In this document: piece by piece, positions 11,585 through 35,636 of the stretch | Layout: the number at the start of each line of letters is the position of its first letter | Numbering within the stretch: position 1 is the first letter of the stretch | Assembly (NCBI GenBank): GCA_964629975.1 | Contig: CAZVUN010000001.1 | Coordinates: 10,846-74,845 of the forward strand | Reading direction: 5' to 3' | DNA from: an uncultured Acidiferrobacteraceae bacterium | Lineage (GTDB): Bacteria > Pseudomonadota > Gammaproteobacteria > Acidiferrobacterales > Sulfurifustaceae | DNA length: 64,000 nt | The notes under the pieces: model-generated | Seen by the model: only the letters and a program-made list of their open reading frames with translations | Told to the model about the DNA's origin: nothing | Databases searched by the model: none | Program-made: the position numbers and the translations under genes

Positions 11585-13051
11585 TTATAATCCGAGCTCG
11601 GCCCACAACTCATCGACACGCCGGCGGACCGCCTCGCTCATCCCGATCGGCCTGCCCCATGGGCGTGTCGTCTCGCCCGGCCATTTGTTGGTCGCATCCA
11701 GGCCGAGCTTGCCGCCGAGCGAGGGTGCGGGACTGGCGAAATCGAGATAATCGATTGGCGTGTTTTCCGCCACCAGCGTATCGCGCGCGGGATCCATGCG
11801 CGTGGTCATGGCCCACACCACCTCCTTCCAGTCGCGCACGTTGATGTCGTCGTCGGTGACGATCACAAACTTCGTGTACGTGAACTGGCGCAGGTACGAC
11901 CACACACCGAACATGATGCGCCGGGCGTGCCCCGGGTAGCGCTTCTTGATCGAGACGCAGGCGACGCGGTACGAGCAGCCCTCGGGCGGCAGATAGAAGT
12001 CCACGATCTCCGGAAACTGCTTCTGCAATATCGGGATGAACACCTCGTTCAGTGCCTGTGCCAGCACCGAGGGTTCGTCCCAGGGCGAGCGGCCCATGTA
12101 GCTCGAATGGTAGATCGGGGTGGTACGGTGGCTGATGCGCTCGACGGTGAAGACCGGGAACGTATCCTGCGCGTTGTAGTAGCCGGTGTGGTCGCCGAAC
12201 GGCCCTTCGAGCGCGGTCTCGCCCGGCTGGATATGGCCTTCGAGCACGATCTCGGCGCTCGCCGGCACCGACAGCGTGCGACTGCGGTCCGGCACCACCT
12301 CGCTGCGCGCACCACGCAGCAGACCCGCGAACGTGAATTCCGAAAGCGAGTCGGGGATCGGTGTCACCGCCGCCAGCAGCGTTGCCGGATCGGCGCCGAT
12401 CGCGACCACCACCGGGAACGGCTTGCCCGGGTTCGCCTCCTGATGCTCGCGGAAATCGATTGCGCCGCCGCGGTGGTGCAGCCAGCGCATGATGACCTTG
12501 TTGCGCGAGAGCACCTGCTGGCGGTAGATGCCGATGTTCTGGCGCGCCTTGTGCGGCCCCTTGGTGATGACAAGACCGAAGGTGATCAAACGCCCGGCGT
12601 CTTCGGGCCAGCACTGCTGGATCGGAAGCATCGACAGGTCCACGTCCGGCCCTTCGACGACGTGCGCGCGGCAGGGTGCGTGGCGAACCTCCTTGGGCGG
12701 CGCGTGCAGCACCTGCCTCCACTCCGGCAGCCTCTCGAACAGCTCGCTCAAGCCCCGCGGCAATTGCGGTTCCTTCAGGAACGCGAGCATGCGCCCGACC
12801 TCGCGCAGCTCCTCGACCGATTTGCGGCCGACGGCCCGCGCGATGCGCGCCGTGGTGCCGAACAGGTTCCCGAGCAGCGCAATGCGCGAGCCCTTCGGGT
12901 GCTCGAACAGCAACGCCGGGCCGCCGGCCTTGAGCGTACGCTGACAGATCTCGGTTACCTCGAGCACCGGATCGACCGGTACGCCGATGCGCTTGAGCCC
13001 GCCGTCGGCCTCCAGCGCCCCCAGAAAATCACGCAATGTCGCGTAGCTCAT
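11585..13051 (-). CDS. ubiD: 4-hydroxy-3-polyprenylbenzoate decarboxylase
   Basis: UbiD-family sequence throughout ([26 protein letters not shown]). ATG 13051 is preferred. The tool start at 13102 is a TTG inside the FNR box. Confidence 0.93.
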
Positions 13052-13088
13052 GGGTCGTACACGGTAGGCGGTCACGGCCGGCCGCCGC

Positions 13089-13102
13089 TTGATCAAAATC
13101 AA
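13089..13102. promoter_or_regulatory. perfect FNR box between divergent ubiD and ubiT
   Basis: TTGATCAAAATCAA. On the + strand a 21-nt gap leads to CATAAT (13124-13129), with the ubiT ATG at 13138. On the - strand a 22-nt gap leads to TACCGT, with the ubiD ATG at 13051. Confidence 0.85.
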
Positions 13103-13137
13103 TTACCCCGCGCACCGGCGGGCCATAATGGCGCGCG

Positions 13138-13638
13138 ATGCCCCCTGCAATCCCCTTCGCCTTGGTAGCACCCCTGCGCCTGCCGCTCGCGCTTCTGCCC
13201 GATGCGTTACAGGCCAGGTTGTTCGCGCAGGTCGCGAACCATCTCCTGCGCGGCCAGCGGCTGGCGCGGCGCCTGCCGGCGCTCGATGGCAGATCGGTCG
13301 AGATCCATATCACCGATGCCGACGCGCACCTGCGCTTCGCCATCGAGGCCGGGCGCCTGGTCGCGAGCGGCGCGCCGCGCTGCGACGTGGTGATCCGCGG
13401 CACGCTCGCCGAGTTCTGGCAGCTGGCCACGCGCGCCGAGGATCCGGATACCCTGTTCTTCCACCGGCGACTCAGCATCGAAGGTGACACCGAGACCGGA
13501 CTGCACGTGAAGAACCTGCTCGATGCGCTCGACTATGACATCGAGGCCCACGTCCGGGCGGTGCTGGAGCAGACGCCGGCGCGCCTGCTCGCGCCACTGA
13601 TCACACCACTGCTCGCCGCACTGCGCGCCGGTCGTTAG
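13138..13638 (+). CDS. ubiT: SCP2-domain ubiquinone anaerobic biosynthesis accessory factor
   Basis: DPDTLFFHRRLSIEGDTETGLHVKNLLDAL closely parallels E. coli YhbT/UbiT as recalled (DPDTLFFQRRLVIEGDTELGLYVKNLMDAI). Confidence 0.85.
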   Translation: MPPAIPFALVAPLRLPLALLPDALQARLFAQVANHLLRGQRLARRLPALDGRSVEIHITDADAHLRFAIEAGRLVASGAPRCDVVIRGTLAEFWQLATRAEDPDTLFFHRRLSIEGDTETGLHVKNLLDALDYDIEAHVRAVLEQTPARLLAPLITPLLAALRAGR

Positions 13639-14531
13639 CCGCCGGCGCTGCCCCAGTTCATGCCCGCCTGCCCGAGCCAGTAGCCGTCGCAGCGCCCGGT
13701 CGGCATGTACGGCGCCAAACGGCTATCGGCATCCGCGACCGTGATCGCCCCGTCGGCGACGGCGCGAAACAGCTCGACAACCGCGAACGTTCCCTGCGAC
13801 TGCGGCGTGACACGCAACACCTCCACGCCGAGCGCCGCCAGGGCTTGCAGATGCCCGAGGAGGCTGTGCGTGCCGGCGGACTGCACCTGGATGCCATTCA
13901 GCACCAGGAACGGTTTGTCCTCCTGGGTCTTGAGCAGCATGCCGTCGGGATAGTCGGCGCAGCGAAAGGCGCAGTCGTCCTTGGACCGGTTGTGGGCGCG
14001 CGCCGTGAAGCAGCGCGCGGAGAACGCGAGCGGCAGGCGCCCAAAGGCAAAGACCTCGGTCTCAACCCCTTCCGGTCGCGTGGCCTGCAGGGCAGCGAGC
14101 GCCTCGCGCGACAGCTCGAGCGGCGGTACCCAGCGGCATGCGCCGCTGCCGGCAAGCACGGCGAGGCTCGCCGCGTTGTAGACGTTGAGATGCGGACCGG
14201 CGACGAAGCGCGCACGGCCGGCCAGCAGGTTGACCGCGCCCCAGTCATTGGCCTCCACCCGGAAGCGCCCGTTCTCGGCGATGCGCCGCAGTTGCGCGAG
14301 CTCCGATTCCGCCTCGAGCAGCGTGAGCGTCGACAGCACCACTTCCTTGCCGGCTGCGGCAAGCTGCTCGGCCAGCGCGATCCAGTCGCGCAGGCGCAGC
14401 GCGCGGCGCTTGGCGCACACCACCTCACCCAGATAGACGATGTCCACCGGGCTCGCCGCCGTGCGTGCGTAGAACTCGCGCACCGTCTCGCGCGTCCAGA
14501 AGTAGGGGATGGGTCCCAGTGATAACTTCAT
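13635..14531 (-). CDS. ubiV: U32-family ubiquinone anaerobic biosynthesis protein
   Basis: MKLSLGPIPYFWTRETVREFY... parallels the E. coli YhbV/UbiV N-terminus. ATG 14531 is preferred over the upstream TTG at 14546. Confidence 0.9.
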   Translation of the reverse strand: MKLSLGPIPYFWTRETVREFYARTAASPVDIVYLGEVVCAKRRALRLRDWIALAEQLAAAGKEVVLSTLTLLEAESELAQLRRIAENGRFRVEANDWGAVNLLAGRARFVAGPHLNVYNAASLAVLAGSGACRWVPPLELSREALAALQATRPEGVETEVFAFGRLPLAFSARCFTARAHNRSKDDCAFRCADYPDGMLLKTQEDKPFLVLNGIQVQSAGTHSLLGHLQALAALGVEVLRVTPQSQGTFAVVELFRAVADGAITVADADSRLAPYMPTGRCDGYWLGQAGMNWGSAGG

Positions 14532-14536
14532 CGTGG

Positions 14537-14558
14537 CAAGTGACAAGTACCAAGTGAC
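14537..14558 (-). repeat. direct repeat GTCACTTG-N6-GTCACTTG immediately upstream of the ubiV start
   Basis: + strand CAAGTGAC at 14537-14544 and 14551-14558 (period 14). The proximal copy occupies the place where an SD would be expected, and no purine-rich SD is present. Confidence 0.7.
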
Positions 14559-14609
14559 GAGTAATCGTGCGCCTGCGGCGCATTGTTTTGCCTCTTACAA
14601 ACCACTAAA

Positions 14610-14627
14610 CACTCAGCACTCAGCACT
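14610..14627. repeat. short tandem 7-mer (CACTCAG x2.6) in the ubiU-ubiV spacer
   Basis: CACTCAGCACTCAGCACT read directly. It lies in a 103-nt spacer of visibly lower GC. Confidence 0.7.
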
Positions 14628-14634
14628 GTCGTCA

Positions 14635-15666
14635 CTATTGCCATGGCCGGTGATAGGCCCCGAGGGTGTGGCAGCGGCCCTCCGCGACCTTGTCGAGCGC
14701 GCGCTGCCATTCGGGGCGGGGCACGAAGTGCGCCGGGTCGCGCCGGCAGGCATCGAGCGCCGCACGCAGCACCTGCGTGACCTGCGCGACATAGGCCGGG
14801 CTGCGCTGCCGGCCCTCGACCTTGATCGCCGCGACCCCGGCAGCGAACAGCTGTGGCAGGATCTCCAGGACGTTGAGCGCGGTCGGTTCCTCCAGCGCAT
14901 AGAACGGCTGGCCGGCCACAGGGTCGGGCCCATCGCTCGAACACCGCTCCACGGCGAACCGGCCCTTGCACAATGTGGGGTAGCCGGCCGACTGGTCGGG
15001 GGCGTAAATGTCGATCAGCACGCCGTTCAGGCGCGAACGCCGTCCACCGCCCGGCGATTCCTCCCAGCGCACACTCTTCGCCGGCGAGCACACGCCGCTG
15101 GTGTTGGGCGACTCGCCGGTGACATAGGACGACAACTGGCAGCGCCCCTCCACCATGATGCACAGGCTGCCGAAGCCGAATACCTCGACCTCCACGTTCA
15201 CGCGGTGCACGATCGCCGCCACCTGCGCAGCCGACAGCACGCGCGGCAGCACCACGCGCCGGATGCGAAAGCGCCGCGCATAGAAGTCGATAGCCTCCGG
15301 ATTCGTGGCCGAGCCCTGCACCGAAAGGTGCAGGCGCAGCTGCGGATGGCGGGCGGCCGCGTAACTGAGCAGCCCGACGTCCGCCATGATCAGCGCATCG
15401 ACCCCAAGCGCGGCCGCCAGGTCTACGGCCGCACACCAGCGGGCCCACTGGTCCGGGCGCGGGAAGGTGTTGAGCGCGACGAACACGCGCCGGCCGGCCG
15501 CGTGCGCGTAGGCGAGCGCCTCACGTGCCTCGTCGGCGTCGAAATTGAGGCCGGGAAAATTCCGCGCGTTGGTGCCGTCGCGAAAACCGATGTAGACGGC
15601 ATCGGCGCCACAATCGATTGCGGCCTTCAATGCCGGCAGGCTCCCGGCGGGACAAATGAGCTCCAT
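14635..15666 (-). CDS. ubiU: U32-family ubiquinone anaerobic biosynthesis protein
   Basis: MELICPAGSLPALKAAIDCGADAVYIGFRDGTNARNFPGLNF parallels the E. coli YhbU/UbiU N-terminus nearly residue for residue. Confidence 0.92.
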   Translation of the reverse strand: MELICPAGSLPALKAAIDCGADAVYIGFRDGTNARNFPGLNFDADEAREALAYAHAAGRRVFVALNTFPRPDQWARWCAAVDLAAALGVDALIMADVGLLSYAAARHPQLRLHLSVQGSATNPEAIDFYARRFRIRRVVLPRVLSAAQVAAIVHRVNVEVEVFGFGSLCIMVEGRCQLSSYVTGESPNTSGVCSPAKSVRWEESPGGGRRSRLNGVLIDIYAPDQSAGYPTLCKGRFAVERCSSDGPDPVAGQPFYALEEPTALNVLEILPQLFAAGVAAIKVEGRQRSPAYVAQVTQVLRAALDACRRDPAHFVPRPEWQRALDKVAEGRCHTLGAYHRPWQ

Positions 15667-15687
15667 CGATGAACGCCAGAATCAGCC

Positions 15688-15709
15688 GTAAGTGATGGGT
15701 AGTAAGTGA
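15688..15709 (-). repeat. direct repeat TCACTTAC-N6-TCACTTAC upstream of the ubiU start
   Basis: + strand GTAAGTGA at 15688-15695 and 15702-15709 (period 14). It shares the AAGTGA core with the ubiV-proximal repeat. Confidence 0.7.
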
Positions 15710-15806
15710 GGGATGGGTTCGTATAAGCGGCTTGACCTGTCGGCGCGGCCACGCATTTCTGCCGCGGACTCCGGGACCTAGAACCTGGAGCGCATCATTG
15801 CCTTCC

Positions 15807-16418
15807 CTAACCTACCTTGCCGAGCACGCGATGGCGGAAGTCGACGCCGAGCCGTGCCGCGAGCGCAGCGCACGCCGCCACGTCCACACCTTCGAGACCG
15901 TCGACGGCGCTCACGCTCACGTGCGGCACGAACTCGCGTGCCCGCGTGATGAATTCGAGCACCGCCTCGTAGGCGCCGGCCTCCTTGGGCCGGCAGTGGC
16001 GCGCGTAGGTGGTCGCGTCCTGCGCGTTGAGCGACACCGACAGGCTGTCGACGATGTCCTCCAGGTCTGGCGTCACGTCACGCCCGTGCACCCGATTGGC
16101 GAGACCGTCGGTGTTGATGCGGATCGCCTTGGCGCCGAGCTTGCGCAGGCGGGTGGCCACCTCGAGCACGTCGTAGAGGCGCAGCGTCGGCTCGCCCAGC
16201 CCGCAAAACACCACCTCCCGATACTGCCCGGGGTTCTCGGCTGCCGCCACCATCTCCTCGACCGTCGGTTCGCGCGGCAGGCGCAGGGCGTAGTCCTGCA
16301 CCGTCCAGCAGCCGTTGAACTTGGGGCAGAAGCCGCAACGCAGCGTGCAGCGGTTGGTAACGTTGAGGTACCGACCACCACGCAGGGTGTAACCGAAAAC
16401 GGGTGTGTGCATGCCCAT
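15807..16418 (-). CDS. small radical SAM protein (resembles the family annotated as TatD-associated radical SAM)
   Basis: CTLRCGFC (Cx3Cx2C) near the N-terminus, a GLGEP glycine-rich motif, about 200 aa. Start is ambiguous: ATG 16433 lies inside the predicted -10 hexamer, so 16418 or 16412 is more likely. Confidence 0.8.
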   Translation of the reverse strand: MGMHTPVFGYTLRGGRYLNVTNRCTLRCGFCPKFNGCWTVQDYALRLPREPTVEEMVAAAENPGQYREVVFCGLGEPTLRLYDVLEVATRLRKLGAKAIRINTDGLANRVHGRDVTPDLEDIVDSLSVSLNAQDATTYARHCRPKEAGAYEAVLEFITRAREFVPHVSVSAVDGLEGVDVAACAALAARLGVDFRHRVLGKVG

Positions 16419-16457
16419 GACGGTGCCGCACATTACCGGCCGCGCGCGCCGCTTGCA

Positions 16458-16471
16458 TTGATCTCAATCAA
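16458..16471. promoter_or_regulatory. perfect FNR box, class II geometry, upstream of the radical SAM gene
   Basis: TTGATCTCAATCAA. On the - strand exactly 22 nt separate it from TAATGT (16435-16430). The predicted TSS is about 5 nt before ATG 16418. Confidence 0.85.
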
Positions 16472-16564
16472 GATCGCCGCGGGCTCATTGCTTGGCGCGA
16501 CGTGGGCGCGCCACGGCACAGTGGTTGAGTGTCACGCTCAACGGCACGGCGGGCGCGCGTGCCG

Positions 16565-16972
16565 CTAACCCGGTTTGTCCTTGAGCAGGTCCTTGAGATT
16601 GGCGAACGGCTGGTTCACGGCCGCGACCCGACTGGCCGCGGCGGGCAGCGGATCCCAGCCGCGCACCAGGTGGGCGAACTTCTGATGCTCGGCATCGTGG
16701 CAGTACAGGCACAGGTTCTCCCAGTTGCTGCCGTCCGCCGGGTTGTTGTCGTGGTTGTGGTCCTTGTGGTGCACCGTGAGCTCATGCAGGTTTTCGCGCG
16801 TGAAGCTGCGGCCGCAGCGCCCGCACACCCATGGGTGCAGCTTGAGCGACTGCTCGCGATAGCCCTGCATGCGCGTGTCGCGATCCTTCACGGCGCGCGC
16901 CACGACCGCGTCCAGCCTGGCGGTATTGATTGGGTCACCCGGGCGCCGCGGGCCGCTGCGCTTTGCTGTCAT
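16565..16972 (-). CDS. yajD: HNH endonuclease family protein YajD
   Basis: HPWVCGRCGRSF...ELTVHHKDHNHDNNPADGSNWENLCLYCHDAEH parallels E. coli YajD as recalled. Confidence 0.85.
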   Translation of the reverse strand: MTAKRSGPRRPGDPINTARLDAVVARAVKDRDTRMQGYREQSLKLHPWVCGRCGRSFTRENLHELTVHHKDHNHDNNPADGSNWENLCLYCHDAEHQKFAHLVRGWDPLPAAASRVAAVNQPFANLKDLLKDKPG

Positions 16973-17082
16973 GGTATCGAGCCCTCACTCGCTGCCTGCC
17001 GACGGATCAGCGCGGACGCGAGGATCCGCTCCGCACTCCCTATATAATGCCGAAAAGCTGCCGCGCTTTGGACTCCCTTAAG

Positions 17083-17541
17083 ATGACATTACCGCCCGTG
17101 CGTCCGGGCTGCGAAGCAAGCGTGGTCTGCGACCTGACACTCTGGAGTTTGTTCGCGGGCGCGTTCGCCTCGGCCGCCCTTCTCCGGGCGGCTCGCGGGC
17201 CGTGCGGTTTCTGGCGGCGCGGCAACGGCCCTGCGATCCGTGGCTGCCTCTCGCCATCGCCCCATTCGGCAACACGCTCGGTGCGCTTACGACCTGGCTT
17301 GTTGGGCGGATTGCTGGCTCGGCGCCAGCCGCTCGATCGGCCGCGCAAGCCCGCGCAGCAGCACGCGGTCACCTGGCTGCGGCACCGGGGCAGCCCCCTA
17401 TTGCCGCTGTCGTGGCTGCCGCGCGTGGGCGACCCGCTGTGCGTTGGCGCCGGCGGGTTACGGATGCCGCTCGCCCTGGCGGGGACGTTCATCGCCGCCG
17501 CCAGGGCGGCCCGCTCCGCGGTGGTAGCGGCCGCCGCCTGA
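17083..17541 (+). pseudogene. yqaA: YqaA/DedA-related inner membrane protein gene with two compensating frameshifts
   Basis: The N- and C-terminal parts (LWSLFAGAFASAALL and VTWLRHRGSPLLPLSWLPRVGDPLC) are in one frame. The middle part (LLPGGSRAV...PWLPLAIAPFGNTLGALTTWLVGR) is in the adjacent frame. The first switch is at the CC run near 17184-17186; the second is near 17290-17310. Confidence 0.55.
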
Positions 17542-35622: not shown

Positions 35623-35636
35623 TTGATCTTCATCAA
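35623..35636. promoter_or_regulatory. perfect FNR box between the OYE reductase and DUF2845 genes
   Basis: TTGATCTTCATCAA. On the - strand a 22-nt gap leads to the weak hexamer CACAGT. No convincing -10 lies at class II distance on the + strand. Confidence 0.7.

Follow-up and report, generated by a model that had tools for sequence, protein, structure and literature searches.

We investigated what the paired TCACTT repeats are that precede both ubiU and ubiV, two anaerobic ubiquinone genes, in an uncultured Acidiferrobacteraceae bacterium, and whether they serve as a regulatory element of these genes. The repeats lie in a 64,000-nt stretch of contig CAZVUN010000001.1 (assembly GCA_964629975.1; hereafter the window), whose own genome, G000, is a 3.14-Mb assembly of 97.9% completeness. 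Here a TatD-associated radical SAM gene (rSAM), ubiU and ubiV follow one another on the same strand, separated by spacers of 140 nt (rSAM-ubiU) and 103 nt (ubiU-ubiV). An earlier note on this DNA had taken the repeats for a shared cis element, either a DNA-binding-protein site or an RNA-level translational control element. Our analysis leans towards a different answer, to which we give somewhat better than even credence: the two repeats would be the start-codon-side arms of two gene-less copies of a heptamer-armed hairpin, intact between ubiU and ubiV and decayed between rSAM and ubiU, which would be transcribed within the operon; the intact copy would couple ubiV to ubiU.

The repeats themselves proved to be as first described. 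On the coding strand both are pairs of exact 8-mers with 6-nt spacers, one ending 5 nt before the ubiV ATG and the other lying 21-43 nt upstream of the ubiU ATG, with 21 nt separating it from the start codon. The low GC content of the long spacers also held on measurement (0.51 for ubiU-ubiV and 0.59 for rSAM-ubiU, against 0.68 for the genome), as did the lack of a purine-rich Shine-Dalgarno sequence, with no GGAG, GAGG or AGGA within 20 nt of either start codon. TCACTT occurs 289 times in the 3.14-Mb genome, counting both strands, so that 0.013 pairs are expected per spacing. The genome search that had been proposed for the spaced pair returned TCACTT-N8-TCACTT exactly twice, well above random expectation, both times at these ubi repeats and on the same strand; at 29 other spacings (0 to 29) we found no pair at 28 and a single pair at one. 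With the TAC that both 20-mers have in the middle (TCACTT-nn-TAC-nnn-TCACTT), they agree at 15 of 20 positions. Because the N8 pair is confined to the two ubi sites and TAC is common to both, the ubiU and ubiV repeats are real, non-random and related to each other. A role at the RNA level is plausible, because both lie in spacers that are probably transcribed and beside start codons that lack a Shine-Dalgarno sequence.

Between ubiU and ubiV, the repeat is one arm of a hairpin that takes up the whole spacer (Table 1). The 14-nt signal reported earlier is present, with an underlying period of 7: because a 5' arm of period 7 complements the 3' arm, the 14-bp period resolves into two alternating units, TCACTTG and GTACTTG. 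The 5' arm scores 18/21 for period 7, a value reached by no random window, and its heptamers complement TCACTTG GTACTTG TCACTTG when G-U pairs are included. The CACTCAG tandem that had been listed as a separate feature of this spacer does exist (14627-14600), but it is in fact the other arm of the inverted repeat to which the ubiV repeat belongs. At least three copies of a 7-nt unit at a non-coding site and two complementary inverted arrays are thus present in the ubiU-ubiV copy, and its predicted fold (-41.6 kcal/mol, z -2.9; equalled by 3 of 200 shuffles) is far more stable than that of the antisense strand (-27.9 kcal/mol).

The predicted stem is kept when folded in a 223-nt context, where it comprises 35 pairs, 9 of them G-U, and where the probability of the 3' arm being unpaired is just 0.06. 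In this fold, the last ubiU codon contributes C14640 and A14639, paired to G14537 and U14538, and the ubiU stop codon contributes A14636 and G14635, paired to U14539 and C14540. The helix is extended by UGGCA at the ubiU end, which pairs with a UGCCA that stops 3 nt short of the ubiV AUG. This predicted pairing of the last ubiU codons with the bases just before the ubiV start suggests that translational coupling has been preserved. An Rfam 15 scan of 12500-17500 (E up to 10) gave no match in the spacers, the best hits having E >= 1.9, far under gathering scores. The exact 21-mer TCACTTGGTACTTGTCACTTG of the ubiV repeat recurs in six unrelated metagenome contigs (L138-L143, L numbers denoting compared loci), inside longer TCACTTG / GTACTTG arrays near which no four-helix-bundle gene of the kind described below was found. 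A metagenome scan for length variants of the exact ubiU-ubiV spacer found none.

Table 1. Features of the ubi locus and its surroundings (window positions)
Feature	Positions	Strand	Remarks
rSAM, TatD-associated radical SAM gene	15807..16433	minus	TIGR04038; first gene of the string, directly precedes ubiU
rSAM-ubiU spacer, probably a decayed hairpin element	15667..15806	minus	from comparison with relatives
ubiU-proximal repeat, TCACTTAC-taccca-TCACTTAC	15688..15709	minus	copies at 15709-15702 and 15695-15688
ubiU	14635..15666	minus	NCBIfam equivalog, UbiU 529.9 bits; ATG 15666-15664
ubiU-ubiV spacer, one gene-less heptamer-armed hairpin of ~100 nt	14532..14634	minus	from the fold
5' arm	14600..14640	minus	last ubiU codons and stop (CAATAG), TGACGAC, then AGTGCTG AGTGCTG AGTGTTT AGTGGTT (14627-14600)
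Tip mini-hairpin GCGCC-GCA-GGCGC	14569..14581	minus	GC-rich; clamp like the GCGCGC-N3-GCGCGC of other elements in G000
3' arm (the ubiV-proximal repeat)	14537..14558	minus	units TCACTTG / GTACTTG / TCACTTG
ubiV-proximal repeat, GTCACTTG-gtactt-GTCACTTG	14537..14558	minus	copies at 14558-14551 and 14544-14537, then ccacg, then the ubiV ATG
ubiV	13635..14531	minus	NCBIfam equivalog, UbiV 405.4 bits; ATG 14531-14529
ubiT	13138-13638	plus	convergent with ubiV
FNR/CRP-type palindrome TTGAT-N4-ATCAA, perfect	16458..16471		upstream of the rSAM-ubiU-ubiV string
FNR/CRP-type palindrome TTGAT-N4-ATCAA, perfect	13089..13102		between divergent ubiD and ubiT

Hairpins of this build are spread through G000, where about 20 of them stand between genes of unrelated housekeeping operons (genes outside the window were called crudely, from open reading frames (ORFs) and the GC content of third codon positions). 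They share one architecture, a G-rich heptamer array, then a clamp resembling GCGCGC-N3-GCGCGC and lastly the complementary array, rich in C, while the unit itself varies by site (AATGTTG; GGTCTCG; AAAGAGA; GAGTGYR; GGTTTCN; AGTGNNN / NNNCACT). CACT-type units like those of the ubi copies also occur between rtcB and the archease gene, beside secE, upstream of rpsJ, before a nirJ-like radical SAM gene and in a che operon; further elements separate pth from ychF, hisI from hisE, and the subunit genes of a molybdopterin oxidoreductase. Genome-wide, CACT shows a spacing excess at 7, 14 and 21 nt, and the period-7 arrays of G000 are low in GC (0.53, against about 0.8 for arrays of other periods). 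The G-rich arm is the 5' arm in 18 of the 19 gene-less hairpins of G000 and in 17 of 19 copies that enclose a gene (cassettes), or 35 of 38 sites together, and the ubiU-ubiV hairpin, with 14 G and 4 C in its 5' arm and 5 G and 7 C in its 3' arm, fits this polarity. Because the same architecture and CACT-type units sit in unrelated operons, the ubi repeats are arms of a genome-wide family of heptamer hairpins and not a ubi regulon. Of the shared cis element proposed earlier, what survives is that the repeats are shared and non-random and may act in RNA; a function as an operator or control element specific to the ubi genes does not. At ychF (GAGACATG; contig C175, 2448-2512) and hisE (CCCGATG; contig C130, 6945-7056), arrays likewise abut start codons that have no Shine-Dalgarno sequence.

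Full-size members of the family carry a gene in the loop. All three TIGR02436 genes of G000 lie inside such hairpins, and two are confirmed as PF05635, the family of 23S rRNA intervening-sequence, Avd-like four-helix-bundle proteins. The units of these cassettes are AAAGAGA, GGTCTCG and AATGTTG, and each of these unit families also has gene-less copies. Four-helix-bundle genes were found in the genomes of 12 of 40 relatives (G001 and higher; all are kin, so that counts across them are not independent samples), and 19 of 23 loci have arrays scoring at least 14/21 on both flanks, a score reached by 2.4% of random 170-nt windows per flank. The proteins cluster by unit family, the nearest neighbour having the same unit in 15 of 19 cases; one clade has GTGA/TCAC units (G001, G003, G019) and another GCAAGTN/NNACTTG units (G018, G022, G030), and it is the units of these two clades that the ubi repeats resemble. 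Four relatives have gene-less arrays at their ubi locus built of a unit that one of their own cassettes also uses (G003, in both spacers; G006; G013; G001). When arms were compared by duplex energy, the cognate arm was best in 11 of 20 comparisons with non-cognate arms, the energies being inflated by long loops.

Some cassettes recur at particular sites. An AATGTTG-armed cassette stands between the genes for molybdopterin oxidoreductase subunits B and C in two genera (G000, contig C59, 8341-8838; L123, G006), with both site and unit kept. In seven genomes, a four-helix-bundle cassette separates rpsU from a tRNA gene, with three unit families represented (L031, L116, L118, L120, L127, L129, L133), and the G000 copy at this position (contig C19, 127-438) has an in-frame TAG.

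In the rSAM-ubiU spacer, the distal copy of the repeat pairs with GUAGGUUAGGGA, which lies at the stop codon of rSAM, and the ubiU-proximal units, set in a 7-nt register as CCCTCAC TTACTAC CCATCAC, fit NNNTCAC. At the same position G001 has a clear hairpin, with a 5' arm of GTGATTC GTGACTC GTGGATC and a 3' arm of GATTCAC TAGTCAC GTATCAC, and G013 and G018 likewise have NNNTCAC arrays upstream of ubiU. Judged by comparison with these three relatives, the rSAM-ubiU copy is probably a decayed heptamer-armed hairpin.

The ubi locus varies markedly among relatives. ubiU and ubiV overlap as ATGA, with no spacer, in 8 of 30 related loci, and about eleven of the 30 have arrays of short tandem units or hairpins whose unit sequences differ; the ATGA overlap and the hairpin spacer both occur within one genus. 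Across 80 named loci, the ubiU-ubiV spacer is absent (overlapping or abutting genes) in 6, 1-30 nt long in 47 and longer than 30 nt in 27, a few of these long spacers having hairpins of 9-nt units. Conservation of the motif upstream of the two genes, which the earlier note had proposed to test by alignment, was not borne out: the ubiU-ubiV spacer of a same-genus relative whose UbiU is 91% identical contains units of the AGCTTGA type but lacks TCACTT, besides the eight relatives without any spacer. Hairpins built of tandem units of ~9 nt, for example AAAGACGCA, occupy the ubiU-ubiV spacers of Thiohalomonadaceae-like genomes (L043, L052, L062, L072).

In exactly three relatives (L002, L003, L012) ubiV starts with TTG, and in these a CTTG-type heptamer array enters the ORF. 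No relative without a CTTG-type array has a TTG start, and those in which ubiU and ubiV overlap all have ATG. In L003 the unit, TTGAAAC, is the first 7 nt of ubiV. In these three relatives the array seems to have overwritten, or to have been seeded by, the start of the gene.

How such an element would work inside the operon can be pictured from the predicted fold. The rSAM-ubiU-ubiV transcription unit would probably be driven from an FNR-type promoter, so that both spacers would be present as RNA. The mRNA stem of ~35 pairs, whose loop holds none of the PF05635 gene carried by full-size elements, would close over the ubiU stop and end 3 nt before the ubiV AUG; it would replace the ancestral ATGA overlap and hold the ubiU stop and the ubiV start together. 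A ribosome finishing ubiU would then melt the base of the stem and free a ubiV AUG that has no Shine-Dalgarno sequence, preserving the coupling of the two subunits of a 1:1 heterodimer. The stem is long enough for RNase III, whose gene (rnc) is present in the genome, and may be cut by it. The locus is a natural experiment, in which normally overlapping (ATGA) genes for a 1:1 heterodimer are split by a 103-nt hairpin without a ribosome-binding site and both remain intact, and it allows testing of what keeps insertions of this kind from doing harm in operons, or makes them useful there.

Several observations weigh against reading both repeats as arms of such hairpins. The rSAM-ubiU spacer folds no better than shuffled sequence (z -0.8), and the ubiU-proximal repeat has a 14-nt period only (11/14), with no period-7 signal. 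Sense strands fold better than antisense strands at 8 of 13 G000 sites and worse at 5, and relatives are mixed; the advantage is large at the ubiU-ubiV hairpin, and we do not claim selection at the RNA level in general. Unit sequences differ from site to site, unlike those of a simple cut-and-paste element. Finally, a search of the 97.9%-complete G000 assembly found no cassette whose units are of the TCAC or ACTTG kind, the nearest being in the same-genus G001 and three other genera, and this absence is the main gap in our interpretation. The G000 site orthologous to the TCAC-type cassette of G001, upstream of an epimerase gene, is empty.

Conventional mobile elements were considered and set aside. 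Miniature inverted-repeat transposable elements would account for the inverted arms, but the copies differ in unit sequence and, on inspection by eye, no target-site duplication was seen at the element flanks. A reverse transcriptase as the spreading agent was also considered and dropped; the genome has two partial RVT_1 matches. A 23S rRNA intervening sequence (IVS) proper was likewise rejected, as the elements lie between protein-coding genes and not in a 23S rRNA helix.

Could the arrays have arisen with no mobile ancestry and no role at all, as by-products of replication slippage and quasi-palindrome correction that leave long 7-nt simple sequence repeats, tolerated where they lie between genes? 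We regard this as unlikely. Units do differ by site and genome, the L003 unit that matches the start of ubiV looks locally seeded, and in many bacteria no class of long simple sequence repeat is commoner than the heptanucleotide one (Mrazek 2007, as summarised in PMC4679880). Slippage does not readily give a three-part architecture with a GC-rich tip and fixed polarity at 35 of 38 sites, however, nor the same unit families at distant sites and in other genera, nor the tight link with one gene family. That link could be read differently, with the arrays as cognate RNA or DNA sites of the PF05635 proteins and a post-transcriptional network acting on genes without a Shine-Dalgarno sequence, ubiU and ubiV included. 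The way protein clades track unit families (nearest neighbours sharing a unit in 15 of 19 cases), the gene-less arrays that share a resident cassette's unit in four relatives, and the frequent position of arrays against start codons in place of the Shine-Dalgarno sequence, as in MacGregor's TAACTGA repeats (PMC4679880), all speak for such binding. We nevertheless find a network of this kind doubtful: G000 has no cassette with the ubi units, the target genes share nothing, and a gene and its arms inherited together as one mobile unit would explain the link between clade and unit without any binding. A bolder combination, in which a class of mobile elements encodes a four-helix-bundle protein that recognises its own 7-nt unit and gene-less copies landing between one gene's stop and the next gene's start take over downstream initiation, the stem keeping the two codons together and replacing the Shine-Dalgarno sequence so that ubiV, ychF, hisE and the like would be translated over a hairpin bridge without Shine-Dalgarno pairing, is in our view also improbable; if true, it would give the long-unexplained excess of bacterial 7-nt repeats both an origin and a function.

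Two explanations that tie the repeats to expression of the ubi genes fare worse. It is very unlikely that the locus is a phase-variable switch, in which gain or loss of heptamers changes stem length or spacing and so tunes ubiV translation. Close relatives do vary in the number and sequence of their units, and phase variation driven by tandem repeats in 5' leaders is known (PMC4679880, PMC12721329); but three to four imperfect units are poor slippage substrates, the metagenome scan yielded no variant alleles, and the genes are housekeeping genes. A ubi-specific operator, with a DNA-binding regulator on the 14-bp-spaced TCACTT repeats, is hardly credible, even though the N8 pair is found at these two genome sites only and a TCAC core with a 7-nt period lies upstream of ubiU in G000, G001, G013 and G018. 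Neither spacer has a promoter-like site, so the motif is not one conserved at a promoter, as a shared ubiU/ubiV operator would be: the same-genus ubiU-ubiV spacer lacks it and many relatives lack the spacer. Units of these types also border four-helix-bundle genes and recur in unrelated operons. The DNA-binding reading of the earlier note is thus not supported, and anaerobic control can be explained by canonical FNR-type boxes.

These boxes are perfect TTGAT-N4-ATCAA palindromes, of which the window holds 3 against 0.03 expected; two flank the ubi cluster (Table 1) and a third lies at 35623-35636. In E. coli, ubiTUV is reported to be under Fnr control (Arias-Cartin 2023). Judged from their sequence and position, the FNR-type boxes are better and simpler candidates for oxygen control than the repeats. 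For ubiquinone biology this removes the repeats as a false lead and leaves a pair of FNR-type boxes as the likely oxygen control. A search of the ubi spacers for sigma-70-like promoters found none, and sigma-70 or sigma-54 elements, considered by eye, were rejected because their spacing is wrong and the promoter scan found none. Resemblances to the NarL heptamer TACCCAT and to the omega-repressor heptads (WATCACW) were weighed by eye and dropped, and mimicry of the 16S anti-Shine-Dalgarno fits some unit families only.

Intergenic heptanucleotide repeats whose function is unexplained have been described in other bacteria, as TAACTGA in Beggiatoaceae (PMC4679880), GGGAATC in Xanthomonas (PMC4692102) and the Geobacter elements (PMC2700814), and the TAACTGA repeats abut start codons that lack ribosome-binding sites (PMC4679880). 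The G000 arrays resemble such repeats (the long simple sequence repeats of Mrazek 2007, the STRR of heterocystous cyanobacteria, and those of PMC4679880, PMC4692102 and PMC2700814) in having 7-nt units in few tandem copies, in being strictly intergenic, mostly between same-strand genes, and in often standing before a start codon in the position of the ribosome-binding site. They differ in forming complementary inverted pairs with a GC-rich tip, in the many units per genome and in being tied to PF05635. We did not find an inverted-pair heptamer architecture tied to PF05635 genes in the literature searched, and the present Acidiferrobacteraceae-like gammaproteobacterial genome shows intergenic heptamer repeats linked in this way to genes of the PF05635 family.

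Hairpin repeats that sit between operon genes, are transcribed together with them and can influence how the mRNA is processed or how stable it is are familiar from Correia/NEMIS (Neisseria), ERIC and REP/BIME. The ubi elements are likewise hairpin-forming and scattered between operon genes; however, those families consist of near-identical consensus copies, whereas heptamer hairpins keep their architecture and vary the unit, with no target-site duplication seen. For RNase III processing, the closest precedent by analogy is the PF05635-bearing 23S rRNA IVS, of which that of Coxiella burnetii (428 nt, with an S23p ORF) is excised by RNase III (PMC4990558). Full-size heptamer elements also hold PF05635 in a long stem of flanking inverted repeats inside a host transcript. 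The ubi elements differ in lying between protein-coding genes, in their heptamer-built arms and in lacking an ORF.

UbiU and UbiV form a heterodimer in E. coli (Pelosi 2019, PMC6747719), and the E. coli ubiT / ubiU-ubiV locus (PMC6747719) has the same genes, with FNR-type sites near the cluster in common. Here, by comparison, the rSAM gene comes first, ubiT is convergent, with ubiD beyond it and divergent from it, and the spacers are long and filled with repeats. The rSAM gene stands immediately before ubiU in about 17 of 30 related loci, and this TatD-associated gene may thus be a partner of anaerobic ubiquinone synthesis that is conserved but has gone unstudied.

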